Position numbers and translations under genes: made by a program. Positions 17,731-37,212 of a stretch of 64,000 nucleotides of DNA are shown here, in pieces. The notes beneath the pieces were generated by a model. The model was not told the origin of the DNA. It worked only from the letters and a program-made list of their open reading frames with translations, and did not search any database. Source of the stretch: an uncultured Bacillota bacterium. GTDB taxonomy: Bacteria; Bacillota; Clostridia; Peptostreptococcales; Anaerovoracaceae. The stretch lies in the NCBI GenBank assembly GCA_946614255.1, contig CAMOGS010000048.1, positions 18 to 64,017 of the forward strand, read 5' to 3'. Every line of letters starts with the position of its first letter. The first letter of the stretch is position 1.

Positions 17731-17780
17731 ATCATTTTTTTCAAGTATTTTATGGTTGTTTTTCTCTTTATCGCCAAAAC

Positions 17781-17814
17781 AAAATCCACCTTAGGTTGCC
17801 CCTGGGTGGATTTT
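17781..17814 (-). terminator. Terminator after brnA-like gene (left copy of duplicated terminator)
   Basis: AAAATCCACC..GGTGGATTTT hairpin followed by GTTTTGG on the minus strand. 36 of 38 nt are identical to 18409-18446. Confidence 0.65.
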
Positions 17815-17817
17815 GGA

Positions 17818-18009
17818 TTAAACGGTTTCTCTCTCTCGGCGGCGACGATTTCTTTCACGTGCAGCGGCACGAAAGCCCTCAGCCGCTTTCGGTGTAAGTG
17901 CCGGAGAATCCTCATCAAAAACTATTGGCATCTTCTTTGCCTTTTCAATCATTTCAATCTGTTCCGGTGTAGGCTTTGCTCCCGGAGTAAATTCCTTAGT
18001 CACGATCAT
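17818..18009 (-). CDS. Putative antitoxin (BrnA position, 63 aa)
   Basis: AAGGAG SD. Overlaps the stop of the upstream BrnT gene by 14 nt. Small protein with a basic C-terminus. Assignment rests mainly on operon position. Confidence 0.5.
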   Translation of the reverse strand: MIVTKEFTPGAKPTPEQIEMIEKAKKMPIVFDEDSPALTPKAAEGFRAAARERNRRRRERETV

Positions 18010-18280
18010 AATATAAACTCCTTTCCCATCCTGTTGCCAGTCTTGCAGATATAATTCTAATATTATCCCTACGTTCTGTATAGACTACAAAAATCACATC
18101 ATGGACTAGCCCCAACACATTATACCTATCTTCCGTTTTGCTATGCTCTTCATCGTACCATTCCAGATAGTCTTCATCATTAAAAGCAAGCATTGCTGTT
18201 GAAAAATCGATTCCGTGCTTTTTTATATTCAAGTTTTCTTTTTCAGAATCCCACTCGAATATACCCCTGATAATATTCAA
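17996..18280 (-). CDS. brnT: BrnT-family (DUF497) ribonuclease toxin
   Basis: FEWDSEKENLNIKKHGIDFSTAMLAFND...IRIISARLAT matches the BrnT signature. The TTG at 18280 after GGAGG is preferred. An alternative ATG lies at 18307. Confidence 0.75.
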   Translation of the reverse strand: MNIIRGIFEWDSEKENLNIKKHGIDFSTAMLAFNDEDYLEWYDEEHSKTEDRYNVLGLVHDVIFVVYTERRDNIRIISARLATGWERSLYYDRD

Positions 18281-18410
18281 TTGTTTTCCTCCAATCCCTA
18301 ATAACATTATACACCTATTGTTGATTCCTGCAAGGCGAACTTACGATTGCATTTCTTGTTTGTTTTTCCATTATCTTCCATATGTAAATATTTGTCAATA
18401 GCTTTGATAA

Positions 18411-18444
18411 AAAATCCACCTTAGGTTGCCCCAAGGTGGATTTT
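18411..18444 (-). terminator. Terminator of giant gene 2 (right copy of duplicated terminator)
   Basis: 12-bp stem AAAATCCACCTT/AAGGTGGATTTT with a 10-nt loop, then a T6 run on the minus strand. Confidence 0.7.
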
Positions 18445-18509
18445 GGTTGCCCTTGATTTAATTGCGCTATTCCTGCGCATTTGTCGCGCTCTAAGCTGCG
18501 CGCTTATAC

Positions 18510-21500: not shown

Positions 21501-24500
21501 GGTTTCTTCCGGTCCAAAGAGCCAAATGTAGTAGTCCTCCTGCTGAATAGCAGTCGGGCTGATTGCAAGATGATTTTGCGTATCATACGTTCCCGTGTAT
21601 CCCGCCAGCCAGCTGTTTGCAGCAGCGCCGCTTACGATAGTAAGCCCTGTCGGGTTGGTAGCCACTTCATAAGTGCCTGCAGGTGCAGGGAAGGAAATCT
21701 TGTTGAAGACTGCTGCGCCCGGGGTGCTCTGTGCATCGCTTGTTACGTAGAAGTAGCCGCTTGTCTGCTCAATGCCGGTGCCTGATACAACAGAGCCGTT
21801 TATAGCATATCTTTCAGCTTGTGATCCGGAGTTGTTAAATTCGCACTTTATTGCCTGTGCAGTATCACCACCGTTTTGCGGAGTGTAATTCATGGCTTCA
21901 ACTGCTAATCTGGAACCTATAATTGCCTTTGCAATTGTTTCAAGCCTTAACCTCTCGTTAGCCGGATTTAACGGAACATTGTTAGTTATTAACTTTTGAA
22001 TGCTTCCTCCATATATATTTACGGTACCAACGGAACTGTTTGAACCGCGGAAGCCAAAGGTTGGATAATTTGCAGACGCGTCTGTACCTGCAAATGTTCC
22101 TGTTTCATCAAACGCTGAAGGTTTATAATCTCGAACATATACATTATCAGGATTTACACCTGTCGGAACCTCCTGTGTGAATGTGCCGCCGTGAATATCC
22201 AAATAATCCTCGTGTGTCTCCGAAATGTCAATTTTGCCTCTGTTAAGAAGCGTTGTACCTTCTGTTATCCACAGTCCGCACGGGATTACCATATGCCCTT
22301 CGTTGATAAGCGCGCCGGTGCCGTTAATAACTGTAGGCGATTCCAATCCGGCTGCGATTTCTCCGGCTGCAGCATTTTTGAATGTACCATTGCCATCTAA
22401 ATAAGCATTGCTCATGCCACTGTCTTTGAACTTCACCAGACCTTCATTTATAAATTCAGCGCCCGATGTGACAGTTATGCTGCTCAGGCTTGTAAGCCTG
22501 CCGCTGTTTATGATATCCACACCGCTGCCTACACTGATATTCGCTGACTCAATTGCAGTCTGTGAGGTTCCTGCAGCTGCCGCAGAACCATCGCCGACTC
22601 TTACAAAGAGCTTGTTGCTGCCGACTGCGCTAAAGGTTGTATAGCCTGCGGTCGCGATTCCCGGACCGCTGATAAATACAGCTTTGTTTGTGGTGGTTGC
22701 AATTATTTCGAAGTTTCCGTCGAGATGTAGCTGCTCATACATCGGATTATCAGCCCTAGGTACAAACAGCTCTGCCGCATCCGCAGGGGTAGGTTCCCAG
22801 TAGATGCTGCTGTTAGTTTCGCCTGCGTCTTTAAGCCAGTCACTTACCGTGTCAAGGCCAATTGGTTCATTCACAAATTCACCGTGCCTGTATAATTGAT
22901 ATTCCATGAGGCCGAAGTCATTAGGTTCCCCTGCAATGAGCGCAACATCATACTTTGTATAATCGCTCCAGTTTGCACGGTTTGAATCATCAAAGACTCC
23001 GTCCGTTACGGCAAGCCCCGTAGGCTGCGCCGGCTCAACATATTCCGTAAACGAAGCATCCGACCCTGCGATTGGGAAGGTAATCTGTGCATAAGCCGCG
23101 TTTGGATAGCTTGCTGCGCCAAAAGTTGTATTGAGCTCTGTCGCCCAAATATTTTTGCGCGTGATTGAACCGCCCATAGGATTGCTGTCCGTCGCCGTTG
23201 AAAGCGTCGTCACACCGTTATTTATAAACGAGCCCGCAATATTATTTCCGCCCGCAGCTGTATAATAGAACTTGTACGCTCTTGCCTGTGTTCCGTCAGG
23301 TGCAGTATATGTAAATGCCCTGCCGCTGTCCATAGCATGCATGGTCATATAGTTTCCAAAGCTTGCGTATACGAGCGTCTTTATATAATCATCAGGAAGC
23401 GTATATCCCGTAGCCACATTCAAATCGCGCTTCAGGCTGCCGCCGTAGATTTCGACATTTCCGCCACCCATAATATTGAACATCGGATGTGGTGGGTTCG
23501 GCTCCGTCGTTTCCGCATTAAGCAGTGTCTGCCGCTTGTCCCATATTGTGCCGCTCTCCTGTGTCAGGAAGCCGCCCCGCAGATATATCGTCTCTGCTGC
23601 ATTTTCATGCATTGTGAGATTTCGGTAGTTTACAAAATCGCCCGAAACAGTCATGCTGTTCATCAATGTGACTGTACCGTTGTTTGTAACATAAGTATTT
23701 GCGCCTACATTCAAATTCGGAACCTTGAACCTCGTTCCTTCATCACTTGCCGTAAGCCCCGCACCATCACCTATCTTTACAACCAGCAGTCCTCCGCCGG
23801 ATACCATGCTTATCGTGCCGCTTGTTTCAAAGCCGCAGTCGATTCCTGCGCCGGAAATGTAAATTGCGCGGTTTGAAGCTGTAGCTGCCATGGCCTGCGC
23901 TGCGCTCAGCACGTCAGGTGAAAGATACTGCGCAGTCCTGCCGGTATCCCAAAGAATCGTATTGTAGGTGTTCGATGAAGAACCCAGCGCCGCGAGGACT
24001 TCGCTCACAGTATGCCCCTCAGTTACTTCGCTCTGCGTTCCCGGACCGTTCACCCTCGCGTACTTTGTGTAAGTGCTCTCATTTCCGTCATTCTCCGCAA
24101 TAAATGCGAGATCGTATGTCGTATAGTCACCCCATGTTTCACGGTATGCCGCGCTGAAGAAGTCCTGATTTGCAACAACGCTTCCAACAGGAGGCGCCGC
24201 TACTCTGTAGGTATACTGCATATTTTGCCCCGACAAGAAGTAATTGTCGGTTTGAGTTCTGCCGGTGTAATTAGTGCCGTCATCATCTTGTATGTAGGAT
24301 GCGAGCCGCACGGTATATTCGCCTGCACGGCCCTGAGGAGCATCACCTGCCACAACCGGCTCGAAAGTGACATCGACTCCTCCGGAGCTGATGGTATCAG
24401 CTGCTCTGTAATCATCATCCGCACCAAATATTGCGAAATCCTGCGGAGTTCTGTATACGCCTATTACCGGCACCACAGGAATCTGCTCCGTACCTGCAGG

Positions 24501-26090
24501 GAATAAGGCATTCTGCGCTACTTCCTCATTTGTTTCGCGGTCATACCACTTTATCGAAATCTCTGCTTTACCAATTAATACCCGAACATCGCCATACCTG
24601 CTGCCGGCTACATCGCCCTTTTCGATTGCGAAATAGTAATATACGCCGCTGTCAGCCACATTTTCTACTGTTTGGCTGTCCGAAGTTGCCAGATTACTGT
24701 CAAACTCAGCGAGGTCGTCACTCCAGTAGTTTCTCAAATAAGCACCGAACGCCGGCACACCGCCGGGAGTTCCCGCCATGCTCTCGCTTACCTCGGCATA
24801 CTCGCTTTCCACACGGCTGTAAAGCGCAACCAATTCATTATATCTATCCGCATCATTGAAAAACCATATATCGTAGTCAGCAAGCCTTGCTGAAAGGTTT
24901 GTCGCTATCGCATGGCTTTGGCAGTCATATGTGCCCGTATAGCCGGTAAGCCAAGCTTCCTCCTGCTGGCCGCCCGAGCTGCTGCCGCCGCCTGTAGAAG
25001 GACGCGTAGTTGGAGTATCCTCCACTGTCACAGCATTGCCATCGAATACGGCCTTGCCTGCGTCAATGCCTGCGCTTTGCTGCACGCTGACATTTTCGAA
25101 AACCTGCTCGGAAGCTGCGCCTTCTGCGCTGCCGCTGCCTGCGTCTGTCTTTGCGCCTTCAATTGTCTGTGCCGCTGCTTCGGTCTGCTGTACAGCCTGC
25201 TGCTCTTCGCCGGCTATCTTTTCATCGAGAAGCTGTGGGTCTGAGACTGCATCGCTAATCTGCTGCAGCGCATTATCCGCAACCTGCAGAGTTTCCAGAG
25301 CTGCGCCGGCCTGCTCCACAATCTTTTCCGTCGAAGCCTGTAATGCTTCGCCCACAGGCATACCATTTTTGATTGCGGCATTTTCGATGATTGCTCTCGC
25401 GCCGAAGTTGTCAATCTCAAGCTCGGACTTTTGGATGAGCTGCTCAGGCGCCGGTAACGAAGGGGTCAGTAAACCCGGAGTGCCCGGAGTACTCGGAATG
25501 TCCGGAGTTAATGCGAAAGTGAGCTGCTCGCCGGCAGAGAGTTTGGCTGATGGACCTATTCCGATGCCCGGCTTTATTTCAGTCTGTCCGGAGAAAAGCT
25601 GCATGGTGGTTTTTTGATTTAGCCTCAAAGATGAGAAGGGTCTGGTGACCACCTGCATTGTACCGCTCGTTCCACGGATGCCGGTGGTGAGGTTGCTCGT
25701 TTTGATGTTCATCGACTCATTGCCCGAAAGCTTTTTTTCAACGTCAAAATAGAGTTGCCCGCTCTTTAGAGTAATTTCAATCTTTTTGCCCGACTTTTCA
25801 ATCTTTACCTTTGTGTTCTGGTCGAGCTTTATAGCCTTTGCGTCATCAAGGCTGATGTAGCAATACGAAGCTGCTGCGGTCTTTACAGTATATCCCGTAA
25901 GGAGCTTCGTGCCGTCAGACGGTGTTACGTCCTTTCCTTTCTCGGTCGCAATCTTTACGGTGCCGCTGGTGCCCGCAATTTTCATGACCGTTGCACTTGC
26001 ATCACCTGCAGAGTCTGCCGCAAAAGCAGAGGCTGCGCCGAATGTGAGCACGAGTGCCAGTGTCAGGATCAAACTAAATACTTTTCTCAT
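18510..26090 (-). CDS. Giant secreted repeat protein, paralog 2 (2526 aa; FecR-like domain + modules A1-B1-B2-A2-A3-B3)
   Basis: Signal peptide MRKVFSLILTLALVLTFGAASAFA and a FecR-like block. There are three W-L-x-G-Y-(T/S)-G-T-Y-D modules with GxYYYFA and KW motifs. There are also three beta-helix-like modules, each ending (I/L)YGG(S/T)(L/I)(K/Q)(R/K) ... (S/T)FP(I/A)(P/A)(A/G). Confidence 0.88.
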   Translation of the reverse strand: MRKVFSLILTLALVLTFGAASAFAADSAGDASATVMKIAGTSGTVKIATEKGKDVTPSDGTKLLTGYTVKTAAASYCYISLDDAKAIKLDQNTKVKIEKSGKKIEITLKSGQLYFDVEKKLSGNESMNIKTSNLTTGIRGTSGTMQVVTRPFSSLRLNQKTTMQLFSGQTEIKPGIGIGPSAKLSAGEQLTFALTPDIPSTPGTPGLLTPSLPAPEQLIQKSELEIDNFGARAIIENAAIKNGMPVGEALQASTEKIVEQAGAALETLQVADNALQQISDAVSDPQLLDEKIAGEEQQAVQQTEAAAQTIEGAKTDAGSGSAEGAASEQVFENVSVQQSAGIDAGKAVFDGNAVTVEDTPTTRPSTGGGSSSGGQQEEAWLTGYTGTYDCQSHAIATNLSARLADYDIWFFNDADRYNELVALYSRVESEYAEVSESMAGTPGGVPAFGAYLRNYWSDDLAEFDSNLATSDSQTVENVADSGVYYYFAIEKGDVAGSRYGDVRVLIGKAEISIKWYDRETNEEVAQNALFPAGTEQIPVVPVIGVYRTPQDFAIFGADDDYRAADTISSGGVDVTFEPVVAGDAPQGRAGEYTVRLASYIQDDDGTNYTGRTQTDNYFLSGQNMQYTYRVAAPPVGSVVANQDFFSAAYRETWGDYTTYDLAFIAENDGNESTYTKYARVNGPGTQSEVTEGHTVSEVLAALGSSSNTYNTILWDTGRTAQYLSPDVLSAAQAMAATASNRAIYISGAGIDCGFETSGTISMVSGGGLLVVKIGDGAGLTASDEGTRFKVPNLNVGANTYVTNNGTVTLMNSMTVSGDFVNYRNLTMHENAAETIYLRGGFLTQESGTIWDKRQTLLNAETTEPNPPHPMFNIMGGGNVEIYGGSLKRDLNVATGYTLPDDYIKTLVYASFGNYMTMHAMDSGRAFTYTAPDGTQARAYKFYYTAAGGNNIAGSFINNGVTTLSTATDSNPMGGSITRKNIWATELNTTFGAASYPNAAYAQITFPIAGSDASFTEYVEPAQPTGLAVTDGVFDDSNRANWSDYTKYDVALIAGEPNDFGLMEYQLYRHGEFVNEPIGLDTVSDWLKDAGETNSSIYWEPTPADAAELFVPRADNPMYEQLHLDGNFEIIATTTNKAVFISGPGIATAGYTTFSAVGSNKLFVRVGDGSAAAAGTSQTAIESANISVGSGVDIINSGRLTSLSSITVTSGAEFINEGLVKFKDSGMSNAYLDGNGTFKNAAAGEIAAGLESPTVINGTGALINEGHMVIPCGLWITEGTTLLNRGKIDISETHEDYLDIHGGTFTQEVPTGVNPDNVYVRDYKPSAFDETGTFAGTDASANYPTFGFRGSNSSVGTVNIYGGSIQKLITNNVPLNPANERLRLETIAKAIIGSRLAVEAMNYTPQNGGDTAQAIKCEFNNSGSQAERYAINGSVVSGTGIEQTSGYFYVTSDAQSTPGAAVFNKISFPAPAGTYEVATNPTGLTIVSGAAANSWLAGYTGTYDTQNHLAISPTAIQQEDYYIWLFGPEETESFNTVKSSASALLGECTPAQATDTMAASLSAIREQLNAISIDHATGFVNQHEYSSEAWQALDALFAKNVVDSGSWRYVAIPKTAQNNAYAGNFEVDITKAAIATKWYYEYEPDEEFTDGTTISISEVPDLHLGTPKIGIIVDGEFVEITQDYIIDEDSAELSESRINISLGYPERDSYTEAGTYYATTSGITYTYNGNTVSGKKETANLYATDGALSISFVVVGTTDPTGTHINIVSGAGTEADGWLTGYSGTYDGDPHSPVSLSAVQQSDYWIWAFNDDDFNADNPNGVDYTPFLASMKAIFESGDFVATEESLAQVQSSIGGEQLPSVTSRTLTYNDWHLISNRETLVQEIGVVDVLSSGYYYYFALPKYPTGSAFTGNFTIDITRAAVGVKWFTVHPDVPNALDIENLPEPEIVPAESLAASGAAYPYTTDVPVVPYIVSGPAVSGSYYMPTVGWYELNGEDFGYYKLITTHSAVSGAGTYCVTVTGIECYVDADAENPIATPQMYVDNYYIDPATATYTYTLRPEGGGSTTGLVVTDGVFDESNRENWSDSSNYDVRYVAVNDSSYMKYVNGAEMGTSVGIDEVLAAMSSTTYSSIYWDTGDSRRTVPDTYANDVEISAETANKAVLITGAGINFGTVRVTLSAEDGKKVYVRTESDSQDYSFGATTVTVDENAEFINSGSIKTQTLNVQHEGAMLTNIGAIEAKYVNVTNAGCLSNDAMFTLSEYGTGSVGAFNIQSGGATVTNSGILNIGGTPVTITDGAILANMSDSNIISEGATVTIGAGSLLSNEGNINIEGGTNVGIAVAAGGEMTQNGSGCIWDSREVSCSFESGGSAVITADNAGLINIGEGAEVKLYGGTLKRSIAVGTNFNEIEDNGDLIKAIVKVMFRAGEIDPIEIVDGNFMYTPETAASEFPRAVLCRMDEGSGNIHGSVLLDDEPVLNDDLGSDIFSGDTNLLDNTFWATYNSADFVSDSDCYVYLSFPIPAGTFAV

Positions 26091-26195
26091 GCGCGTTCCC
26101 TTCTTTATATTACCTTTATCTACTTAATTAAATTTAGACAGTTTATTATACAACAAGCTGAAATAATATGAAAGCAAAAACGCAAAAAATAGACG

Positions 26196-26227
26196 AAAAC
26201 CACTCTATCTGCAGATAGAGTGGTTTT
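26196..26227 (-). terminator. Terminator of giant gene 3
   Basis: AAAACCACTCTATC-loop-GATAGAGTGGTTTT followed by a T6 run on the minus strand. Confidence 0.7.
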
Positions 26228-26245
26228 ATGAAAAAACGCATGTTT

Positions 26246-29200
26246 TTATGGAACTACCGTAATCGGAATATCCGTAAGCTCGGTGATAATCGTGCCGTCG
26301 GCTGCGAGCAGCTCGTCAAAATAGTATAAACCATCATCTTCATGGATTCTACTTGTATATCCGAGAGTTGCGCCCTCCCAGTTTACCTCATCAGGGTCGA
26401 ATCCAAAGCCGCTCATTCCATATTCACCTGTATTGTCAAATACAAGCGAGTGAGCGTATCTGTCCGTATAGTTTCCTCTGAGTCTGAAGAGCTTTCCATC
26501 ACCGTCAATGATATAGAATCTGCAGTTCACCGCACCGCCGACTATGCTACTGCCCACTTCAAGCATTGAGCCCTCTTCGAATGTAAGGGTGAGGGTTGCG
26601 TCGGAGCTGTCATATACTGCCGAAGGGCTAGGCTCCTGTGTTGTAGCCGCTAATATAGCTGTAGCTCCAACCGGTTCCGAATCTACTTCTATTGTCTCGA
26701 GTGCCATATTCTTGCTGCCACTGTTAAGTCTCACAAAGAACCTGCCCTCAGGCACCTCACTCGGCAACCAATCTTCATCAATATGGAAGAAGGTAGTGCC
26801 AAGCTGCTGTGTATGGTTGTCGTTCCATCTGAACTCGTCGGTCCAGTCCATATCCGAGCCTTGTATCTGAGTTGAGTTATCCCAGCTGGTTCCGTACTTA
26901 ATCATATAAGTGCCGTTGGTAGTCGGATTCAAAAGCCTTCCTCTGAGGTCGACTCTGATGAGGCTCCTGTCCTCCGATGCGGCTACGCTGTCTATATTAA
27001 CTGCCGAATCCTGAATAGGGATAGGATTTTCTGCCGTTATTGCGGCCATAGGGTTTCCGTTCGTATCTGCAACCGCAGTTCCGTTATAGGTAAGGCCCAT
27101 ATTCATGCCTTCAAGGCTCTCCACACCAAGCTCCATAAAGTAGCGCGTTCTGCCGCTTACTGCAGCGGTTGTCGAAACGCTTACAGAGCTGATTGTACCT
27201 GCTGCGCCCGTAAAGCCAAAGCCCTCTCCGTTAGTCGGCACATCTACGTCTTCGCTCATTTCGACAACAATTTTGTTTCTCGCTCCATTTAAGAATGCCG
27301 ATAAAATGCGAGGTGCTACAGTGTCTCGAGCGTTCTCAGTGCCTGTAATGTACAGCTCGCCGAATTGCTGACTAGCCGCCACAAAAATCGGCTGGTCTGA
27401 AATTACATTACCCTGCTTTAGGATAAATGCAAAGAATGCGCCGGAGTCAGCATCCTGCCACTCATTAAAGTCTATACTTATCGTTTCTTCGTCTGCCGAG
27501 TCTATACGCCCGTAGACAAGTGCACTTGCCTGATTTACATAGTTTGAATGCCCGTGAAGCACATCATAGGAATCAGGGTAGCCATTACCTCGTTTTCCTA
27601 CAAATATTCCGTAAACCTCCGTATCCGCTGCCTCTGCAAGCTTTAGTGTTATATCAAAGCCATCTGCTCTGCAAGCTACCTGCGGATATCCATCCGCAAA
27701 GCCAACGATATTGCTGCTTAATATCGGCTGTGATGTTATAGGGTTACCCTCCGCGAGGCGGTAGGTGAAGGTGAGGTTGCTGCCTATTACATTGCAGTTT
27801 CCATCGTTAGCCGGGCAGTTTCCACCCTCGTTAAGAGGTGTTACTGTTGCCCCACCCATTTTAGGATTCATATATTCAATGCCCGTAACCTTTACGGTAT
27901 AAAGTCCGTCTGAGCCTTCAACAGGATTGGATGTTACAAGGCTATAACCACTGCCAAGGGAAACAGGGACTTTAGCCCCGCCCGTGCCGAGCATATATGT
28001 GTATGGACCCACGTCAACATATCCGTAATCATTAAGAGTGAGCGTTGAATCCGATGGTACATCGGTATAGGTTCCTGCTCCAAAGTTGTACATGCCCCAG
28101 CCGATATAAAGGTCTGCAGGCTCGATTACAACAGGAGTTCCGCCCGTCTTTATATCGTTAAGGTTTCCCTGCTTTGGAATTGCGTAGTATAGATATCTGC
28201 CGGTACGTGAAACGCTACGCACAGTCTCATAGCTTCCCGCAGGGTCGTAGAAATCCCAACCAAAGCCACCGCTTGCTGTGGAACTCAACCTCGTGATTAC
28301 TTCATCAAGATTAAGACCTTGACTTCTAAGCGCTGACCAAGAGGTTGCTATGTTTCTATACTTTTGTCTCTCACTAGAGCTGCTTCCGTCAAAGCAGAAG
28401 ATATAATAGTTATTTGCCTGGTCTTCTGTCAGATTAAACGCAGGATGATCCTGTCCGTCATATGTGCCGGTATATCCTGTAATCCAGCCCGGTTCTATTG
28501 TGTAGCTGTATGTATATTCACCTGTCAGGGAGAAGTTTGGTGTCTCGTAAACATATTCCGGCTCAGGATCTACAATCGGAATGCCATGTCCGATACTTGA
28601 CGGAGTGGTAACTGCAATACAATTAACCTTTACCGTGCCGGAGTTTGCGGTAAGTTTAAAGCCGCTGGCATAGCCCGGAGCCAATGTAAATATTTCTGTT
28701 GGCTGTCCATTATCGTCAAATCCTGCAATATCCATCGATATCGGCTCAAATATACCATCAGGCGATACAATGCCAAGCTGCGCGCTTACAGGAATCTCTG
28801 TCGTATCCGAAGGGAAAGTGCCTGAATTGCCGGTGACTTCATTTCCGCTTGCATCTACCCATCTAACCTCAAGTTCCTTTCTTGAAATCCTAACATGGAG
28901 TGTACCTGTCTTTTCCTCGTAAGGTGCTGTATGCCCTATTGCGTAGTAAGGATAGTCACCACTGTCAGCGACATACATTACCTCGCTGATATCTTGCCTA
29001 TTATCACTTATGTCATGTTCATTGCAATAGTTGTTCCTAAATTCATTATTGTAGAGAAGATATTGTTCCACTACCAGTCTGTAATAATCCGGTTCTGGCT
29101 CGCCTGCCTCAGCAAGGCTTACCTTTACCTCTTCATAGTTTGCCTTTGCATCCGCGAGGACTGCCGCAAAGGATGTATATTCCTCTACAGTCTTAAATAC

Positions 29201-30454
29201 AAAGATATCGCTTTCGCTGAACTTTACATATGGGTCTTCTGTGAATACACGCTTTGGTCCTTGTGAGAAATAATCAAATGCGCCTGTATATCCCGTGAGA
29301 TATCCCGACTCAGGAATACCGTTTTCGCTTGCGCTCGAGCTGCCGCTACTGTGGCTGCCCGAAGTCTGCGCTGCAGTGCCCTCTACAGTCACGCTGCCGC
29401 CTTCGAAGCTTACCTTTCCGGCGTCAATTGTGGCATTTTGGGAAACCTCCACCTTTTCGAAAACCTGCTCGGAGGCTACACTGCTCGCATTTCCGCTGCC
29501 TGCATCAGCCTTTGCATCGCTTATTGCCTGCAAGGTTTCTTCGGTCTTTGCAGTTTCCTGCTGCTCCTGCTCTGCGATGGCTTTGTCGAGTGCCTGCGGA
29601 TCGCTTGCCATTTCTGTAACCTGCTGCTTTGCGCTATCCGATACATTGAGCGTATCAAGCACCGTTTCGCCCACCTTTTCGAGAATCTGAGCAACGCTCG
29701 AGGTAAGTGCCTCGGCTACGGATGTACCCTGCTTGATTGCAGCATTTTCGATGATGGCTCTCGCGCCGAAGTTGTCGACAACGAGATCTCCCTTTACAAG
29801 AGTCTGCCCGGCTCCCGTGGTTTCCGCTGCTTTGTTTACGGCAAGCTGCTGACCTGCGGAAAGGCCGGTGGGCATGGCATTACCCATGCCTGTCTTTACA
29901 TCGGTAAATCCCGAAAAGAGCTGCATCGAAGTCTTTGGCATCAGTACATTTGCCAGCTGCGATTTCTGCGAGCCTGCGCGCTGTATAGCCTCAAGCACCT
30001 TTTCGAGGACAACCCTTATTGTGCCGCTCGTTCCGCGGACACCGGTTGTGAGGTTACTCGTCTTTATGTTCATTGACTCACTGCCTGAAAGCTTTTTGTC
30101 TACATCAAAGAACAGCTGCCCGCTTTTGACATTTATTTCTATTTTCTTTCCCGACTTTTCTATCTTTACCTTCGTATTCTGGTCGAGCTTTAACGCTTTT
30201 GCATCATCGAGACTGATGTAGCAATACGAAGCCACACCCGTCTTTACGGTATAGCCCGAAAGGAGCTTTGTACCGTCGCTGACGTTTACGTCCTTGCCCT
30301 TTTCGGTCGTGATGCTGACTTTTCCGTCAAAGCCCGCAATCTTCATCACAGTCGCAGTCGTGCTTCCCGCAGACGAGCCTGCCGCAAATGCGGAGCCTGC
30401 GCCGAAGGTAAATACGAGAGCAAGTATTAATACTAAACTTACTATCCTTTTCAT
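26246..30454 (-). CDS. Giant secreted repeat protein, paralog 3 (1402 aa; FecR-like domain, two YDG-like modules, divergent Ig-like/beta-sandwich-rich C-terminal half)
   Basis: Signal peptide MKRIVSLVLILALVFTFGAGSAFA. The FecR-like block is about 80 percent identical to its paralogs at DNA level. GYLTGYTGAFD and GWITGYTGTYDGQDH modules. The C-terminal 650 aa are unrelated to paralogs 1 and 2. Confidence 0.85.
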   Translation of the reverse strand: MKRIVSLVLILALVFTFGAGSAFAAGSSAGSTTATVMKIAGFDGKVSITTEKGKDVNVSDGTKLLSGYTVKTGVASYCYISLDDAKALKLDQNTKVKIEKSGKKIEINVKSGQLFFDVDKKLSGSESMNIKTSNLTTGVRGTSGTIRVVLEKVLEAIQRAGSQKSQLANVLMPKTSMQLFSGFTDVKTGMGNAMPTGLSAGQQLAVNKAAETTGAGQTLVKGDLVVDNFGARAIIENAAIKQGTSVAEALTSSVAQILEKVGETVLDTLNVSDSAKQQVTEMASDPQALDKAIAEQEQQETAKTEETLQAISDAKADAGSGNASSVASEQVFEKVEVSQNATIDAGKVSFEGGSVTVEGTAAQTSGSHSSGSSSASENGIPESGYLTGYTGAFDYFSQGPKRVFTEDPYVKFSESDIFVFKTVEEYTSFAAVLADAKANYEEVKVSLAEAGEPEPDYYRLVVEQYLLYNNEFRNNYCNEHDISDNRQDISEVMYVADSGDYPYYAIGHTAPYEEKTGTLHVRISRKELEVRWVDASGNEVTGNSGTFPSDTTEIPVSAQLGIVSPDGIFEPISMDIAGFDDNGQPTEIFTLAPGYASGFKLTANSGTVKVNCIAVTTPSSIGHGIPIVDPEPEYVYETPNFSLTGEYTYSYTIEPGWITGYTGTYDGQDHPAFNLTEDQANNYYIFCFDGSSSSERQKYRNIATSWSALRSQGLNLDEVITRLSSTASGGFGWDFYDPAGSYETVRSVSRTGRYLYYAIPKQGNLNDIKTGGTPVVIEPADLYIGWGMYNFGAGTYTDVPSDSTLTLNDYGYVDVGPYTYMLGTGGAKVPVSLGSGYSLVTSNPVEGSDGLYTVKVTGIEYMNPKMGGATVTPLNEGGNCPANDGNCNVIGSNLTFTYRLAEGNPITSQPILSSNIVGFADGYPQVACRADGFDITLKLAEAADTEVYGIFVGKRGNGYPDSYDVLHGHSNYVNQASALVYGRIDSADEETISIDFNEWQDADSGAFFAFILKQGNVISDQPIFVAASQQFGELYITGTENARDTVAPRILSAFLNGARNKIVVEMSEDVDVPTNGEGFGFTGAAGTISSVSVSTTAAVSGRTRYFMELGVESLEGMNMGLTYNGTAVADTNGNPMAAITAENPIPIQDSAVNIDSVAASEDRSLIRVDLRGRLLNPTTNGTYMIKYGTSWDNSTQIQGSDMDWTDEFRWNDNHTQQLGTTFFHIDEDWLPSEVPEGRFFVRLNSGSKNMALETIEVDSEPVGATAILAATTQEPSPSAVYDSSDATLTLTFEEGSMLEVGSSIVGGAVNCRFYIIDGDGKLFRLRGNYTDRYAHSLVFDNTGEYGMSGFGFDPDEVNWEGATLGYTSRIHEDDGLYYFDELLAADGTIITELTDIPITVVP

Positions 30455-30470
30455 TGTCTGTTCTCCAAAC

Positions 30471-31976
30471 TTACTTTACATCCGAAAGGTTCTTTAGAAT
30501 CTGCGCAACCTCTGCTCTGGTAGCAGTGTCACCGGCTGCCAGATTTCCGTCTTTACCCTTTATTACGCCCTTTCCGACTGCCCAGATCAGAGCATCCTTT
30601 GCCCATGACGGAGCCTTGTCCGCATCAGGCATGGCGTTAAAGCTTTCCTTTGCTGCACTGCTGAGCGTAGTATCCATCTTCATCAGCTTTGCATAAGAAT
30701 ATATGATTGCTGCCATCTGGCCGCGTGTAACATTGTCATTTGGTGCGAAAAGTCCGCCGCCTATGCCGTTTACCAGGCCATTGTCAGCAGCCCATGCAGC
30801 CGGGCCCGCATAGTAAGCACTGTCTGCCACGTCGCTGAACTTACTGTCGCCGCCGATAATTTCGCCTGCGTAGGTCTTTTCATAAAGCCTGCCAATGACT
30901 GTCACGAACATGCCGCGTGTCATGCTTGCCTGAGGCGAGAACATGCCCTTTGCGGTGCCGTTAAAGAGGCCTCCCGTGTAAGCATAGTCCACCGCATCAT
31001 AGTACCAAGCCTTTGCCGGCACGTCATAGAAGTCAGAGACCGACTTTGCCTCAGCCGAAAGGTCCAGAACTACAACTCCCGCATCGCTGTCGGCCACATA
31101 GAGCTTGCCATCCGAGATAGCCATATCTGCCGGGTCAGCCGGGAATGTATCGAGTGCCTTTGCATCAGCCTTTAAGAAGGTGGAAACTGTGCCGTCCTCA
31201 ATCACACGGATTGCATTGTTTCCGCAGTCGCCGACATAGAGCTTGTTTGAAGCTTTATCAAAGGCAAGTCCTGTCGGATTGAGGAAAAGTGCCTTGCTGC
31301 CGATTCCGTCAATATACCCGCCGTCAGCAGATGCGCCGGCAATGATGGAAAGAGCTTTGCCGTCGTATTTCAATACTCTGTGATTGCCCGTGTCTGCAAT
31401 ATAAAGGTTTTTACCGTCCCATGCGAGACCCTTTGGTGCGGAAAGACCGCTGACGATTGTCGCTACCTTTCCGTCCTTTGTGAGAGACAGAACTCTGTCA
31501 TTGCCTGTGTCAGCAATGTAGAGTGTGCCTTTACCGTCGCTTGCAAGAGCAGTCGGAAGTGAGAGCTTTGCTTCTTTACCGAGCAGCGTCTTTACACTGC
31601 CGCCTTCAATGTAGCGAAGGAGATTGTTTGCAGTGTCGCTCACCGCAAGGCCGTTCATGAAGCCTTCGATGTCGGTCGGACGGTTAAAGAGTGCCTTTGC
31701 GTTTTCGCTGTCAAGGAAACCGCCTGCCGCTTCGCCGAGCATGTCCTCAGGAAGGAGCTTTCCCGCAAAATCGGTCCACTCACTGCTGCCCTTTGCCTCT
31801 TTCATAATGAGGTTTGAAAGGTGGTCGACCGCATAGATATCGCCTGCCGCATCAACGTAGATGCCCGTTACTTCCTTGAACGTAACGCCTGTTTCATCTT
31901 CGCCTGCTGCAAATGCAGGAACACCCATTGCAAATACCATTACCGCTGCCATAAGGCACGCCAAAAGTCTTTTCAT
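30471..31976 (-). CDS. NHL-repeat beta-propeller protein with three C-terminal SLH domains
   Basis: Signal peptide. NHL repeats (LYIADTGNDRVL, LYIADTGNHRVLKY, LYVGDCGNNAIRVI). Three SLH-like repeats (FYDVPAKAWYYDAVDY..., FSDVADSAYYAGPAAW..., PSWAKDALIWAVGKGVIKG). Its stop lies 16 nt from the start of giant gene 3. Confidence 0.85.
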   Translation of the reverse strand: MKRLLACLMAAVMVFAMGVPAFAAGEDETGVTFKEVTGIYVDAAGDIYAVDHLSNLIMKEAKGSSEWTDFAGKLLPEDMLGEAAGGFLDSENAKALFNRPTDIEGFMNGLAVSDTANNLLRYIEGGSVKTLLGKEAKLSLPTALASDGKGTLYIADTGNDRVLSLTKDGKVATIVSGLSAPKGLAWDGKNLYIADTGNHRVLKYDGKALSIIAGASADGGYIDGIGSKALFLNPTGLAFDKASNKLYVGDCGNNAIRVIEDGTVSTFLKADAKALDTFPADPADMAISDGKLYVADSDAGVVVLDLSAEAKSVSDFYDVPAKAWYYDAVDYAYTGGLFNGTAKGMFSPQASMTRGMFVTVIGRLYEKTYAGEIIGGDSKFSDVADSAYYAGPAAWAADNGLVNGIGGGLFAPNDNVTRGQMAAIIYSYAKLMKMDTTLSSAAKESFNAMPDADKAPSWAKDALIWAVGKGVIKGKDGNLAAGDTATRAEVAQILKNLSDVK

Positions 31977-32164: not shown

Positions 32165-35100
32165 TTAAAAAAGCGAAAGCTGGTCGGTTTCGGGCAGGCC
32201 GTTTAACAGACCGTTTGCCCGAAGCACTTCAATAGCGGATTTGTTCTGACCGCCGCGGATTCGAACATCCTCGACAGTTTCGTAAGGGCGCTCTCTGTAG
32301 CCGCAAACAAGTGCGTTTGCAGCTGTTTCGCCCATTCCCGTCAGTGCCAGGAAAGGAAGCAGCACGCGGGCCTTACCATGCTCGGCTTCGCCTGCCTTGC
32401 CATAGTCCTTTTCGTCTGCGGTTGCGCTTTCCGGGTAGTGGATTTTGAACTTTGTCGCATCGGAAAGCTCAAACGATGCGGGCTCGAACTCAAAGCCTCT
32501 CGCAAACATTTCGTATGCAACCTCGTAAACGAGATATTCGTCGCCTTCCTTTTGTGAAGCCTCTTTGCCCTTTGCCTCTATCAATTCCATTTCCTTTAGC
32601 ACGGCATTTTTGCCGCGAAGGATAACCTCTGAATTGAAGTTGTCTATTTTAGTGGTAAAATAAACTGCATAAAACGCTGCAGGGAAATGTACCTTGAACC
32701 ATGCGAGTCTGAATGACATCATTACATATGCCACCGCATGGGCGCGCGGGAACATGTACTCGATTCTTTGGCAGGATTCGATATACCAGTCCGGGACATC
32801 GTTTTTCTGCATCAAAGCCTTCCATTCATCCCATTCCTTGCACTTTCCCTTTGCAACCTTTCCCTTTCGGACATTCTCCATGATTTTGAAGGCTGTCTTG
32901 TTTGGCAGGCCCTTCAGAATCAGGTAGTTCATAATGTCGTCACGGGTTGATATTACTTCCTTCATTGTGGCATCGCCGCTCTTTATGAATTCCTTTGCGT
33001 TACCCAGCCACACCCCGGTTCCATGCGAAAAGCCCGAAAGGCGAACCAGGTCGGCAAACTTGTCAGGCTTTGTATCGTCGAGCATGCCGCGTACAAAGGA
33101 TGTTCCAAACTCAGGGATAGCATAGCTGCCGTGAGTGAATTTGTAATCCGGATCCTCTATCGAGAGTGACTCTATGCCGTTAAATATCTTTAATACATCC
33201 TTGTCGGAAAGGTCTGTATCCTGAGGGTCAATACCCGTTAATTCCTGAAGCTGTCTGATCTGCGAAGGCACATCATGACCGAGTATATCGAGCTTTAACA
33301 GGTTCTCGTCAATCTTGTGATAATCAAAATGTGTCGTTATCATATCCGATTTGACATCGTTTGCAGGATGCTGCACCGGACAGAATTCATAGATTTCATG
33401 ATCGTCCGGGCATATTACCATGCCGCCCGGGTGCTGACCTGTCGTGCGCTTTACGCCCGTGCAGCCCTTTGCCAGCCTGTCCGCCTCGAATTTGTTTACC
33501 GGAATACCTCTTTCCTCATGGTATTTCATTACATAGCCGTAAGCGGTTTTATCCGCTACCGTGCCTACGGTTCCGGCTTTGAATACGTTCTTTTCACCGA
33601 AGATTTCGCCTACGTATCTATGCGCAATCGGCTGATATTCACCCGCGAAATTAAGGTCGATATCAGGCTCCTTGTCGCCTTCGAATCCGAGGAAGGTTTC
33701 AAAAGGAATGGTAAAGCCGTCCCTCTTCATCATTGTGCCGCATTCGGGACATTTGCGCGGAGGCATATCGTTTCCGCAGTCGTATTCTCCCGCTCCGTAA
33801 ATGTCGTCGCCCCATTCGAGCTTTTTGCAGGCGGGACAGATATAGTGAACAGGCAGCGGATTAACCTCCGTAATCCCGGCCATGGTAGCCGCAAAGGATG
33901 AACCTACGGAACCACGCGAGCCTACCAGATATCCGTCGTCATTCGATTTTTTTACCAGCATCTGTGCCGAAACATACATCACGGCATAGCCGTTGTCGCA
34001 GACCGAGTTTACCTCTCTGTCGAGTCTGTCCTGAATGAACGGCGGCAGCGGATCGCCGTATATTTTGTGAGCCCTGTCGTAGCAGGTCTTTTTCAGTGTT
34101 TCTACTGCACCGTCGATTTTCGGAGGATACTTGCCCTTTGGCACCGGCAGAATCTCTTCCGTCATGTTCATGATAGCCTGCGTGTTTTCGACAACCACGC
34201 GGCGTGCTGTTTCTTCGCCGAGATATGCGAACTCTTCGAGCATTTCGTCGGTGGTGCGCATGTAGAGGCCTTCGCCGTCTTCCGCATCCTTGTAGCCCAT
34301 GCCCGCCATCAGTATGTTGCGATAAATCGCATCGTCAGGCTCGGCATAGTGTGAGTCGGTCGTCGCACAGACGGGCTTTCCGAGCTTGTCCGCGAGTGCC
34401 ACTATGCGGCGGTTTATATCGCGCAGACCTTCGATGTCCTGCACGCGGCGGCTCCTGTGCTCGCCCTTTGCCGTAACCGTGTCTTCCGTCAGGAAGCGGT
34501 TGTTTATCAGAGGCTGAATCTCAAGGTAGTCGTAAAATGATGCGACTTTCTCGATTTCGGATTCTTCCTTGCCTTCGAGAATTGCCTCGTAAAGCTCGCC
34601 CGCAGAGCAGGCGGAGCCCAGTATCAGACCCTCTCTGTGCGCCTCGATGACGGAGCGCGGGAGCCTCGGTTTTTTATAGAAATAATTAAGATGCGAATAT
34701 GAAACCAGCTTGTAGAGGTTTTTGAGCCCTGTCTGGTTTTTTGCGATGATTATAATGTGGTACGAGCGCTGAGTTTTATACTCGATTTTGCCGTCGTCAC
34801 CCTCGTAGCCCTCGGATTCCACTAGGTAGCCTTCCATGCCGTAGATAATCTTTATCGGCCTGCCTGCCTTTGCTTCATCCTGCGCCTGGCTGTGCGCATC
34901 CGGGAATGCCTGTACCACTCCGTGGTCGGTGACTGCGACTGCCGGCTGTCCCCACATGGCAGCTGTGTGAACGAGGTTTTTGACAGGGTTTAATCCGTCC
35001 ATCGCACTCATCTGAGTATGCGCATGAAGCTCCACTCTCTTTTCCTCGCAGGTATCCTTTCTGCCGACAGGGCGCTCGCCTTTTTCTATTGAATCTATCA

Positions 35101-36106
35101 TGGCGATGAGAGCTTTTTCGTACTCGTCGTACTTCATTTCGCCGTGAACCTTTACATAGTCGCCCTCCTGGAGGTTATTATTTATATCGTCCCATTTTTG
35201 CGGCAGGCAAAAGCATTTTAAGCCGATGCTCGTCTTTCCGTCCGTGATGGCCAGGCTGACGAGCTTTTTTGCGCCGTTTTGAACGTCTCTTTCGCTCTTT
35301 TCAAAGAGTATGCCGCGTAGGTTTACCATGCCCGTCTCGGCTGTAACGGTGCGCATGTCGGTGAATGCCGCATCGTCTCCTATAGGCTTTCCCATAATCA
35401 GATCGCCCTCTACAGGCTGGTATTTATCCTTTTTGCGCCATCCGCCCTGAGGTCTTGCGTTTTCTCCGCTTTTGCCCTCGCCAGAAGCCTTGGCAGCGCT
35501 GCCGCCGTATACCCTGTTTGGATCGCTTGCTGCCTCCTGCGCCAGCTTTGCGGCTGCGGCAAGCTCTGCGGCGTATGCGGCTTCTCTCGCCTCTTCACTC
35601 TTTCTGGTATATTCTTCGTCGTTTATGAAGACGATTTTTTGCGTTATGCCAAAGTCGCGGCTGAGGATTTCCTGAAAGCGGTAAGCGACCTCTGCATTCA
35701 GTCTGCCGACTACCGTTTCACCGACTGCCTTTATTGTTATTTTGCCCTCCGCCTCGTCGATTTTTGCGCTGTCGCAGTGAATTGTCCGCGTAAGCGGTGA
35801 AAAATCGCCGTTTATCTCTGCGATTGCGCGTGGCAGTGCCAGCCGCAGAATATCGGATTTATTCAAAGCCAGGTCCTTGTATATGTATTCGATGTTAACG
35901 CTCTTTAGCCCCGGAACTCCGCAGGTAAGCTGAGCCTTTAGCTTTTTCTCGTCCTCGAGCGGCATGATAAAATTGAGCTCCAGCTTTAATTCAAAGCAGC
36001 TCTTTTCCGTCAGGAGTACTGCCGAGCACACCTTGCAGCGCAGCTTTTCCCTGTCATAGTTTCCGATTTTATCCCAGCTTATTGCGTTTTCAATCAGGCT
36101 TATCAT
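32165..36106 (-). CDS. polC: PolC-type DNA polymerase III alpha subunit lacking the 3-prime-5-prime exonuclease insert
   Basis: N-terminal domain and OB fold precede the PHP domain (HAHTQMSAMDG, VTDHG). Also present are the PolC Zn-finger CPACKK...CPECG and the palm motif PDIDLNF. Only 17 aa separate IYGMEGYLVE from SYHIIIIAKNQTGLKNLYKLVS, the position where the DnaQ-like domain normally sits. 1313 aa. Confidence 0.9.
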   Translation of the reverse strand: MISLIENAISWDKIGNYDREKLRCKVCSAVLLTEKSCFELKLELNFIMPLEDEKKLKAQLTCGVPGLKSVNIEYIYKDLALNKSDILRLALPRAIAEINGDFSPLTRTIHCDSAKIDEAEGKITIKAVGETVVGRLNAEVAYRFQEILSRDFGITQKIVFINDEEYTRKSEEAREAAYAAELAAAAKLAQEAASDPNRVYGGSAAKASGEGKSGENARPQGGWRKKDKYQPVEGDLIMGKPIGDDAAFTDMRTVTAETGMVNLRGILFEKSERDVQNGAKKLVSLAITDGKTSIGLKCFCLPQKWDDINNNLQEGDYVKVHGEMKYDEYEKALIAMIDSIEKGERPVGRKDTCEEKRVELHAHTQMSAMDGLNPVKNLVHTAAMWGQPAVAVTDHGVVQAFPDAHSQAQDEAKAGRPIKIIYGMEGYLVESEGYEGDDGKIEYKTQRSYHIIIIAKNQTGLKNLYKLVSYSHLNYFYKKPRLPRSVIEAHREGLILGSACSAGELYEAILEGKEESEIEKVASFYDYLEIQPLINNRFLTEDTVTAKGEHRSRRVQDIEGLRDINRRIVALADKLGKPVCATTDSHYAEPDDAIYRNILMAGMGYKDAEDGEGLYMRTTDEMLEEFAYLGEETARRVVVENTQAIMNMTEEILPVPKGKYPPKIDGAVETLKKTCYDRAHKIYGDPLPPFIQDRLDREVNSVCDNGYAVMYVSAQMLVKKSNDDGYLVGSRGSVGSSFAATMAGITEVNPLPVHYICPACKKLEWGDDIYGAGEYDCGNDMPPRKCPECGTMMKRDGFTIPFETFLGFEGDKEPDIDLNFAGEYQPIAHRYVGEIFGEKNVFKAGTVGTVADKTAYGYVMKYHEERGIPVNKFEADRLAKGCTGVKRTTGQHPGGMVICPDDHEIYEFCPVQHPANDVKSDMITTHFDYHKIDENLLKLDILGHDVPSQIRQLQELTGIDPQDTDLSDKDVLKIFNGIESLSIEDPDYKFTHGSYAIPEFGTSFVRGMLDDTKPDKFADLVRLSGFSHGTGVWLGNAKEFIKSGDATMKEVISTRDDIMNYLILKGLPNKTAFKIMENVRKGKVAKGKCKEWDEWKALMQKNDVPDWYIESCQRIEYMFPRAHAVAYVMMSFRLAWFKVHFPAAFYAVYFTTKIDNFNSEVILRGKNAVLKEMELIEAKGKEASQKEGDEYLVYEVAYEMFARGFEFEPASFELSDATKFKIHYPESATADEKDYGKAGEAEHGKARVLLPFLALTGMGETAANALVCGYRERPYETVEDVRIRGGQNKSAIEVLRANGLLNGLPETDQLSLF

Positions 36107-37212
36107 TAATTAGTATCCTTTAGTATCCTTTTCTTTACCATTTCGGTCAGTTCTTCGGTGATTTTGTCCTCCGAAACGGCTTTAATTATTTCGCCCTTTG
36201 CGAAAATCAGGCCCTTGCCGTCGCCGCCCGCAACTCCGAGATCTGCCTCTTTGGCTTCTCCGGGACCGTTTACGGCGCAGCCCATAACGGCTACCTTAAG
36301 GCTCTTCCCTGCTGCCGCCAGCATTTCATCAAACGGGGCGAGTGCTCTTTCCACATCCGAAGCGATACGCACCAGGTCTACCCTCGTGCGTCCGCAGGTA
36401 GGGCACGAAACGAGGTCTATGCCTGTCTTTCTGAGCCCTATCGACTTTAGTATTGCCTTTGCGGCATAGATTTCTTCAATCGGGTCTGCCGTCAGAGAAA
36501 CCCGCATTGTGTCTCCGATTCCGCAAAGCAGCAGCGCTCCTATTCCGGCTGCGCTCTTGATTTTCCCCATTGAAAGCGTTCCCGCCTCAGTCACTCCGAT
36601 GTGGAGCGGGTGATCGGTCTTTTCGGAAACCAGCCTGCAAGCTTCAAAGTTCATGCGAACATCGGATGACTTCATGGATATGACGATGTCGCCAAAGTCC
36701 ATGTCTTCGACCAGCTTTACGTTTCTGAGTGCGCTTTCAGCAAGACCTTTTGCCGTAACTCCGCCCTCGCGAGTCAATATATCCTTTTCGAGCGATCCGC
36801 CGTTCACACCGATGCGAATCGGTATATGTCTTTCCTTTGCAGCATCTACTACGGCTCTTACTCTGCCCGTATCCCCGATGTTGCCCGGATTTATGCGAAT
36901 CTTGTCTGCGCCGTTTTTTATTGCCGCAAGTGCGAGACGGTAATCAAAGTGAATGTCGGCAACAACGGGTATGGTCAGTCCGCATTTCCTTAGCTCACGG
37001 ATTGTAACGCCCAGTGCATCCGCAGCTTCGCTGTCCGGCACCGCGAGTCTGATTATCTCGCAGCCCGCCTCGGAGAGACGCTTTATCTGCTCTACGCATG
37101 CCCTGCTGTCTCTTGTGTCGACATTACACATGGATTGTATGGAAATCGGCGCTGTGCCGCCTATTGCCACATCGCCGCATAATACCTTGTGAGTTTTTCT
37201 GTGTTCGTTCAT
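36106..37212 (-). CDS. ispG: 4-hydroxy-3-methylbut-2-enyl diphosphate synthase
   Basis: 368 aa. IRINPGNIG, the CPTCGR cluster motif and GCAVNGPGE. Its stop overlaps the polC ATG (TAATG). Confidence 0.93.
   Translation of the reverse strand: MNEHRKTHKVLCGDVAIGGTAPISIQSMCNVDTRDSRACVEQIKRLSEAGCEIIRLAVPDSEAADALGVTIRELRKCGLTIPVVADIHFDYRLALAAIKNGADKIRINPGNIGDTGRVRAVVDAAKERHIPIRIGVNGGSLEKDILTREGGVTAKGLAESALRNVKLVEDMDFGDIVISMKSSDVRMNFEACRLVSEKTDHPLHIGVTEAGTLSMGKIKSAAGIGALLLCGIGDTMRVSLTADPIEEIYAAKAILKSIGLRKTGIDLVSCPTCGRTRVDLVRIASDVERALAPFDEMLAAAGKSLKVAVMGCAVNGPGEAKEADLGVAGGDGKGLIFAKGEIIKAVSEDKITEELTEMVKKRILKDTN

Follow-up and report, generated by a model that had tools for sequence, protein, structure and literature searches.

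A clostridial PolC that lacks the DnaQ-like exonuclease module and retains a complete PHP metal site

PolC is the essential replicase of the Firmicutes and a target for antibiotics, and the DnaQ exonuclease fused to it is regarded as a hallmark of the family. The polC gene described here encodes a protein of 1313 amino acids (aa) without that module and lies on a 64-kb stretch of DNA (the window) from an uncultured gut or rumen Clostridia bacterium related to Anaerovoracaceae (Clostridiales Family XIII). The DnaQ-like DEDDh exonuclease that sits within the PHP domain of canonical PolC is found in 86-94% of PolCs and is missing from the window's protein. The exo-less architecture is already known, having been catalogued in genome surveys in 2013, and 6% of PolCs were reported to be without the exonuclease (Exo) insertion (Timinskas, Balvociute, Timinskas and Venclovas, NAR 2014, PMC3919608). 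Such PolCs occurred only in Clostridia and Negativicutes, besides one extra copy in Thermotogae, and the organisms that carry them always pair PolC with DnaE1 (PMC3919608). Table S2 of that survey gives the domain order NTD-OB-PHP-POL3-HHH2 (NTD, N-terminal domain; HHH or HhH, helix-hairpin-helix) for 12 genomes, each with that sole PolC and a typical DnaE1, and Table S1 records HHDHEHCDH, nine of nine PHP residues, for the exo-less PolCs of Acidaminococcus fermentans and A. intestini. Some Clostridia have DnaE1 only, and whether DnaE1 is the main replicase was already asked in the Discussion of the same paper. An intact PHP motif is the normal state of clostridial PolC (PMC3919608 Table 2; PMC12926913). 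No experimental study of an exo-less PolC was found in the searchable literature, and the question that these enzymes raise, namely which nuclease secures replication fidelity, was posed in 2013.

The 1313-aa protein is a genuine PolC. Taken whole, it matches both NCBIfam PolC equivalogs above their cut-offs, with 1393.3 bits against 873 for NF001688 and 1273.6 bits against 1043.45 for TIGR01405, and all NCBIfam DnaE models score far under theirs. Both PolC profiles are matched in two stretches, the second of which places query 440-1313 on profile 606-1444; query residue 440 thus joins profile position 606, and a block of the PolC profile is therefore skipped. Pfam finds an OB domain (261-329), a PHP domain (359-525), DNA_pol3_alpha, DNA_pol3_finger and a weak HHH_6. 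PDB entry 3f2b aligns with the protein in one continuous alignment (E=7e-302), and the full-length PolC 9qpc aligns in two stretches, query 225-468 with chain 228-466 and query 442-1313 with chain 633-1471, so that about 170 canonical PolC residues are without a counterpart in the window's protein. The characteristic motifs start at aa 421 (IYGMEGYLVE), 431 (SEGYEGDDGKIEYKTQR), 448 (SYHIIII), 757 (CPACKK), 786 (CPECG) and 814 (PDIDLNF), and the order along the protein is IYGMEGYLVE, SYHIIIIAKNQTGLKNLYKLVS, CPACKK, CPECG and PDIDLNF. The polC reading frame is unbroken, and the window has zero N or ambiguous bases. The gene and its parts are laid out as follows.

32165..36106, minus strand: polC coding sequence, 1313 aa plus stop, PolC-type DNA polymerase III alpha subunit without the DnaQ-like exonuclease module (open reading frame; NCBIfam; PDB 3f2b).
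35417..36106, minus strand: N-terminal region, aa 1-230, with a low-complexity Ala/Glu/Gly-rich linker before the OB domain; presumably the PolC NTD (homology to relatives).
35120..35326, minus strand: OB domain, aa 261-329, ahead of PHP (Pfam PF01336, 27.2 bits against a cut-off of 27; aligns with the OB domain of 3f2b).
34832..35032, minus strand: N-terminal half of PHP, aa 359-425, with ligands H361, H363, D370, H395 and E425 (Pfam PHP, 118.8 bits; ligand mapping).
34760..34831, minus strand: 24-residue loop, aa 426-449, GYLVESEGYEGDDGKIEYKTQRSY, at the exonuclease site of canonical PolC (insert lengths, junction alignment).
34337..34759, minus strand: C-terminal half of PHP, aa 450-590, with ligands H450, C500, D584 and H586 (Pfam, ligand mapping, AlphaFold2 model).
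32801..34099, minus strand: polymerase core (palm, thumb, fingers), aa 670-1102, with D815 and D817 (PDIDLNF) and D940 (KLDILGH) (DNA_pol3_alpha, 193 bits; DNA_pol3_finger, 83 bits).
33740..33838, minus strand: PolC-type Cys4 zinc finger in the palm, C757, C760, C786 and C789 (motifs; aligns with 3f2b and 9qpc).
32168..32374, minus strand: C-terminal (HhH)2 region, aa 1245-1313 (Pfam HHH_6, E=0.0013, under the gathering score).
32168-32182, minus strand: beta-clamp-binding motif QLSLF, aa 1309-1313, at the very C-terminus (type matches PMC3919608 Table S1).

The exonuclease module is absent from this protein. The segment 34763-34822 on the minus strand translates to VESEGYEGDDGKIEYKTQRS (aa 429-448), and the spacing between the PHP ligands E425 and H450 is 24 residues, compared with about 200-220 in canonical PolC. 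Pfam detects no RNase_T/DnaQ family in the 1313-aa protein even at E<=1. A hidden Markov model (HMM) was made from 99 PolC exo inserts, and its consensus shows the Exo I, II and III motifs as DLETTG, AHNASFD and HHRADDDA. In six-frame translations of the window in full and of 80 related loci (L001-L080), this exo HMM matches nothing at E<=10, and it has no match in the 120 closest homologs either; as a contrast, P0140, the closest relative with an exo, scores 250 bits. Comparison of the 24-aa loop with the exo profile by hhalign gave a probability of 0.16%. A cryptic or split exo domain was also considered, and is ruled out by the blank six-frame search at E<=10 across the window and the 80 loci. 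The original prediction had described a PolC with no exonuclease domain and with all nine PHP ligand positions occupied, and on the identity of the protein, the missing domain and the ligands it held up, with all of its quoted motifs present. It had also given a linker of 17 residues; the short link is real and 17 residues is the part without obvious counterpart, but the gap from ligand to ligand is 24.

The junction itself can be read from the alignment. The head of the loop, GYLVE, matches the strand ahead of the exo domain, its tail, IEYKTQRSYH, pairs with the strand that comes after the exo domain in PolCs that have one (NIEYKNIETYH in P0140, for instance), and about 10 residues bridge the gap. 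P0140 has its N-terminal domain type in common with the query clade, which supports deletion from an exo-containing ancestor. The exonuclease module was apparently excised cleanly, and the deletion is old and fixed in the lineage. In the predicted structure described below, the 10-residue blocks that span the loop have a mean predicted local distance difference test score (pLDDT) of 76 and 84.

Relatives share the deletion. The best 120 protein clusters, at 55-98% identity, are 1237-1346 aa long except for one partial sequence of 1131 aa, and PF00929 is absent from all of them. With the query they make a clade of 121, all of which keep HHDHEHCDH; the loop is 24 aa long in 107/121, with a conserved G-x-I-D/E-Y-K, and the C-termini are conserved as DQLSLF, DQLSFF or DQLSMF, a clamp-binding motif of the QLSLF type. 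A scan of one genome per species returned the 80 loci, which together with one further contig (L081) represent 81 independent assemblies. Top identities in the scan were 72-75%, and L081, from the metagenome-assembled genome (MAG) GCA_016648415.1, encodes a 98%-identical protein. The polC matches span about 3.6-4.0 kb at all 80 loci wherever the whole protein was matched, and the short polC is present as one full-length copy in each of the 81 assemblies, isolates and MAGs alike. Sources include Emergencia timonensis, Brotomerdimonas butyrica, Ihubacter, Aminipila, Aminicella, Senimuribacter, Clostridium aminobutyricum and many gut or rumen MAGs. The survey of relatives that had been proposed as a check thus recovered the same deletion in the best 120 clusters and in all 81 assemblies.

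Conservation extends to the polymerase parts. Neither D815 nor D817 varies in any of the 121 clade members, and the Cys4 columns and the Asp of KLDILGH are nearly invariant (alignment A1). By these criteria the window's protein is a polymerase-competent PolC under purifying selection. The N-terminal domain is less readily placed: PolC NTDs are poorly conserved (PMC3919608), no Pfam NTD family matches the query at E<=1, and the domain is presumed by transitivity only, through PF11490 as precomputed on several close relatives. Residues 1-175 are homologous by phmmer to all 120 close relatives and to the exo-containing P0140, and besides P0140 phmmer linked the query's N-terminal domain to no exo-containing PolC.

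All nine positions of the PHP metal site are occupied in the query (H361, H363, D370, H395, E425, H450, C500, D584 and H586), giving HHDHEHCDH, which is identical to the "active" PHP signature HHDHEH[C/H]DH of a 2026 survey of polymerases (PMC12926913). Ligand position 8 is Asp (D584) in the query, as opposed to Asn in Geobacillus kaustophilus PolC and in 9qpc. In the G. kaustophilus enzyme a single position of the nine is mutated, and its PHP domain shows no exonuclease activity (Banos-Mateos et al., PMC5636811), and the D226N variant of Mycobacterium tuberculosis (Mtb) DnaE1 is exonuclease-dead (PMC5636811). Mtb D23 and D226 correspond to D370 and D584 of the query. In PolC, the DnaQ-like domain sits in the loop lining the groove to the PHP active site, a loop whose length is 29 aa (Mtb), 18 aa (Taq) or 9 aa (Escherichia coli) (PMC5636811). 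The query loop aligns with that of Taq DnaE without a gap. For aa 340-665, AlphaFold2 modelling with 48 homologs gave a structure with a pLDDT of 90.5 and a predicted template modelling score (pTM) of 0.89. Its closest PDB match by Foldseek is 3f2b, over all 326 columns (TMq 0.79, 40% identity); full-length PolC structures require about 190 extra columns, and DnaE1-type PHP domains (Taq, Mtb, E. coli) rank next, the matches including 3f2b, 4iqj, 7pu7 and 2hpi. In the model, the PHP barrel is complete, with an ordinary loop beside the active site.

To place the clade within the family, we aligned 138 PolC sequences: 132 representatives of >=1100 aa, collected by an exhaustive HMMER search with aa 230-1313, together with five close homologs and the query itself. 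A short linker of 11-61 aa is found in 29/138, and the linker sequences are unrelated to each other. These 29 exo-less PolCs are scattered over a neighbor-joining (NJ) tree of the 138 sequences, and Fitch parsimony on this rough tree, with its simple distances and deep divergences, counts 17 changes of exo state, or 22 when degenerate inserts are included, which suggests several independent exo losses among PolCs. Seven further representatives (P0143, P0149, P0163, P0168, P0174, P0178 and P0202) have an insert of 142-291 aa at the exo position that matches neither the exo HMM at E<=10 nor Pfam RNase_T at E<=0.1, and all seven keep the nine PHP ligands. By hhalign, P0178 is linked to the exo profile at 88% and P0174 at 80%, others of the seven being unlinked; P0205, which belongs weakly to the degenerate group, reaches 96%. 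The seven undetectable inserts look like a decay series of the DnaQ module. PMC12926913, by contrast, states that the proofreader inactivated in Pol III alpha subunits is not DnaQ. The PHP motif is intact in 35/36 sequences whose exo is absent or undetectable and in 63/102 with a detectable exo (Fisher p = 1.2e-5, a descriptive value uncorrected for phylogeny), and HHDHEHCDH is also found in 70/109 long-insert representatives.

A few representatives depart from these patterns. P0220 (1178 aa) has an 11-aa linker and a degenerate PHP motif, HRSLENSDQ, and is the sole exo-less sequence whose PHP site is not intact; a second gene copy is one possibility, a polymerase of a phage or plasmid another. 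In P0226 (1918 aa) and P0249 (1631 aa), about 411-413 residues lie between the PHP ligands E and H, roughly twice the normal insert, and the surplus may come from a further domain, a duplication or an intein.

The explanation that we consider probable, with modest confidence, is that this exo-less PolC proofreads in cis through its PHP domain, by analogy with Mtb DnaE1 and Thermus Pol III alpha. An ancestor of the lineage would have lost the DnaQ-like 3'-5' exonuclease from the PHP loop that hosted it by precise excision, leaving the 24-residue loop, of the kind found in DnaE1-type PHP domains. The enzyme would retain its parts for polymerisation (the catalytic Asp triad, Zn finger, OB fold, (HhH)2 and QLSLF), and mismatches would be removed at the nine-residue trinuclear metal site HHDHEHCDH. 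The organism would also carry a DnaE1 with an intact PHP site of its own; this is very probably true of the present genome, as of the genomes with an exo-less PolC in the 2013 survey. The original prediction had framed PHP proofreading as a reversion. As a hypothesis PHP proofreading is reasonable, but "reverted" has the wrong polarity, as 70/109 long-insert PolCs are already PHP-intact; an intact PHP is common in long-insert and in clostridial PolCs, and the lineage therefore lost one of two nucleases and regained none; put more generally, a nuclease was lost from a redundant set of several. More broadly, PHP may be the indispensable proofreader of PolC in clostridial PolC+DnaE1 replisomes, with the DnaQ insert expendable and repeatedly decayed or deleted; we offer this wider proposal tentatively, as one that we doubt more than we favour.

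Several points weigh against PHP proofreading in this enzyme. No PolC PHP domain has a demonstrated exonuclease, and the sole statement found on a PolC is negative, although it concerns the ligand-mutated G. kaustophilus enzyme (PMC5636811); the paper on an exo-deficient S. aureus PolC contained nothing relevant on residual PHP-dependent exonuclease activity. Nine intact ligands are necessary and insufficient for exonuclease activity, and PHP domains can have structural or pyrophosphatase roles (PMC3666897; PMC4822814). The correlation between exo loss and an intact PHP is, moreover, confounded by lineage: organisms that combine PolC with DnaE3 account for most PHP-degenerate PolCs, and the exo has been lost solely in those with PolC+DnaE1. 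What permits the loss could therefore be DnaE1 and not the PHP site of PolC.

Proofreading might instead occur in trans, with mismatched termini passed to a stand-alone DnaQ-like protein or to the PHP exonuclease of a co-resident DnaE1, and with the PolC metal site retained for structural or other reasons. The DnaQ domain of B. subtilis PolC is reported to complement DnaE3, a precedent for complementation in trans, and bacterial proteomes average more than three DnaQ homologs (PMC12926913); mycobacterial DnaQ is described as a second proofreader beside the PHP domain (PMC11348249). The tabulated genomes with an exo-less PolC have DnaE1 (PMC3919608), and in clostridial DnaE1s the PHP site is intact and the epsilon-binding patch conserved. 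However, neither the 64-kb window nor the 10 kb on either side of polC in the 80 relatives contains a DnaQ-like open reading frame (ORF), and there is therefore no operonic partner. The PHP ligands of PolC also show no variation across the clade (121/121) and are intact in 35/36 sequences that lack the exo, a stricter pattern than the 63/102 seen where the DnaQ domain is present, and we regard proofreading in trans as unlikely. A different possibility is that this PolC does not proofread at all and is subsidiary or specialised, with DnaE1 as the bulk replicase and the PHP site kept for fold stability or pyrophosphatase activity. Timinskas et al. raised a subsidiary PolC, given DnaE1-only Clostridia and the restriction of exo-lacking PolCs to PolC+DnaE1 organisms (PMC3919608), and the many losses or degenerations of the exo module (17-22 changes on the rough NJ tree of 138 representatives) suggest a relaxed need for it. 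Such a role is at odds with the canonical locus, the strong conservation, the invariant catalytic Asp, the nearly invariant Zn-finger Cys, the conserved clamp motif and the single full-length polC copy in all 81 assemblies examined. A role in fold stability is countered by the Pol III alpha of E. coli, which folds with five of the nine ligands altered (PMC5636811). A subsidiary PolC thus also seems rather improbable to us.

Finally, the short gene could have been an artefact of a frameshift or of collapse during assembly, or else a paralog in decay beside a full-length polC, and the original prediction had named these, together with an exonuclease domain visible to profile search, as ways in which it might fail. 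Profile search found no such domain. The reading frame is unbroken with no N in the window, and the same architecture in 120 protein clusters and 81 independent assemblies excludes an assembly artefact. Both the length and the motif of the loop are conserved and synteny is canonical; together with the invariant catalytic residues and the conserved clamp-binding motif, the canonical locus makes a decaying paralog unlikely. In the published complete genomes of this architecture it is, in addition, the sole PolC (PMC3919608 Table S2). We consider an artefact or paralog very improbable indeed.

polC occupies its canonical locus. Upstream, tsf, pyrH, frr, uppS, cdsA, dxr, rseP and ispG form an array in the classical Firmicutes order, and rimP, nusA, ylxR/L7Ae, infB, rbfA, nrnA, truB, ribF, rpsO and pnp are found downstream. 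The labels tsf, dxr, rseP, ispG, rimP, ylxR/L7Ae, nrnA (a DHH protein), truB and ribF are backed by Pfam, and those of pyrH, frr, uppS and cdsA by Pfam families through the gene table of the L081 contig; nusA and infB were labelled from ORF size and matches in related loci, and rbfA, rpsO and pnp from ORF size and position only. The gene that adjoins polC is the following.

36106..37212, minus strand: ispG (gcpE), directly upstream of polC (ORF; GcpE Pfam families in the L081 gene table).

The same-strand adjacency, with ispG upstream of polC, recurs in 75/80 relatives, and at least 27 of the 80 have rimP or nusA downstream. A search with aa 341-1160 (phmmer, six-frame) found no second C-family polymerase in the window or in L001-L080, polC itself being the sole match, and Pfam scans of 30 further ORFs in the window returned housekeeping and surface proteins only. 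Judged by its locus, this polC is the housekeeping copy. By the ORF coordinates, the ispG stop and the polC start share one base, position 36106 (36104-36108, minus strand). This one-base overlap suggests that translation of polC may be coupled to the upstream isoprenoid/membrane gene cluster.

Other observations concern the remainder of the window. A block of about 18 kb (14260-31976, minus strand) separates polC from rimP-nusA and encodes an SLH/NHL-repeat protein of 501 aa and three very large secreted proteins of 1402, 2526 and 1046 aa, each of the three carrying a FecR domain at its N-terminus. The 98%-identical L081 contig has a similar block, the genes of the block have matches in 1/80 other relatives, and rimP comes immediately after polC in several relatives. 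A 203-aa ORF (11559-12170, minus strand) combines YlxR (DUF448, aa 10-80) and an L7Ae-family domain (aa 104-191) in one protein. In B. subtilis, ylxR and ylxQ are two separate genes between nusA and infB. Three ORFs have no Pfam match at E<=0.001, namely 56562-57359 (plus strand, 265 aa), 52369-52857 (minus strand, 162 aa) and 54990-55715 (minus strand, 241 aa). The last of these overlaps a YicC-like gene on the opposite strand and is probably no real gene.

Natural exo-less PolCs show that the fused exonuclease is dispensable in PolC+DnaE1 bacteria. The window contributes a further example, from a large Anaerovoracaceae-like lineage of gut and rumen in which the deletion is fixed, and leaves the overall picture unchanged. 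In practice, the protein is of use as a candidate for testing whether a PolC can proofread through PHP. If PHP were the indispensable proofreader, natural exo-less PolCs would be a ready-made system in which to demonstrate PHP proofreading by PolC.

Among known enzymes, E. coli Pol III alpha is likewise a C-family replicase polypeptide without a DEDDh domain, but five of its nine PHP ligands are altered and it is epsilon-dependent (PMC5636811), whereas the query, with no dnaQ nearby, has an intact site. Mtb DnaE1 (5LEW) and Thermus Pol III alpha (2HPI) are closer in this respect, with the same complete nine-residue trinuclear site, a short loop between ligands E and H and no fused DnaQ. They differ in being DnaE-type enzymes, with the OB and C-terminal domains at the C-terminus and with neither a PolC-type Zn finger nor a PolC NTD; they are 23-26% identical to the query by Foldseek, and PHP exonuclease activity has been demonstrated for them and for no PolC. 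Canonical PolC (B. subtilis; G. kaustophilus 3F2B; 9QPC) shares with the window's protein the OB, PHP, Zn-finger palm, fingers and HhH, while the window's protein is without the DEDDh exonuclease of about 170-200 aa and has Asp, not Asn, at PHP position 8. The protein crystallised in 3F2B is an engineered delta-N delta-Exo construct (PMC3656037), and the window's protein is its natural counterpart. The nearest described class is that of the exo-less PolCs themselves, represented by A. fermentans YP_003399045 (1191 aa), with the same order NTD-OB-PHP-Pol3-(HhH)2, the same HHDHEHCDH and a C-terminal clamp motif, and with hosts that are likewise anaerobic Firmicutes, of the PolC+DnaE1 type as the window's organism very probably is. 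The window's protein differs from that of Acidaminococcus in coming from Anaerovoracaceae-like Clostridia rather than Negativicutes, and the loop G-x-I-D/E-Y-K is specific to its clade. Since exo-less PolCs are scattered on the NJ tree, the deletion in the window's lineage was probably independent of that in Acidaminococcus.

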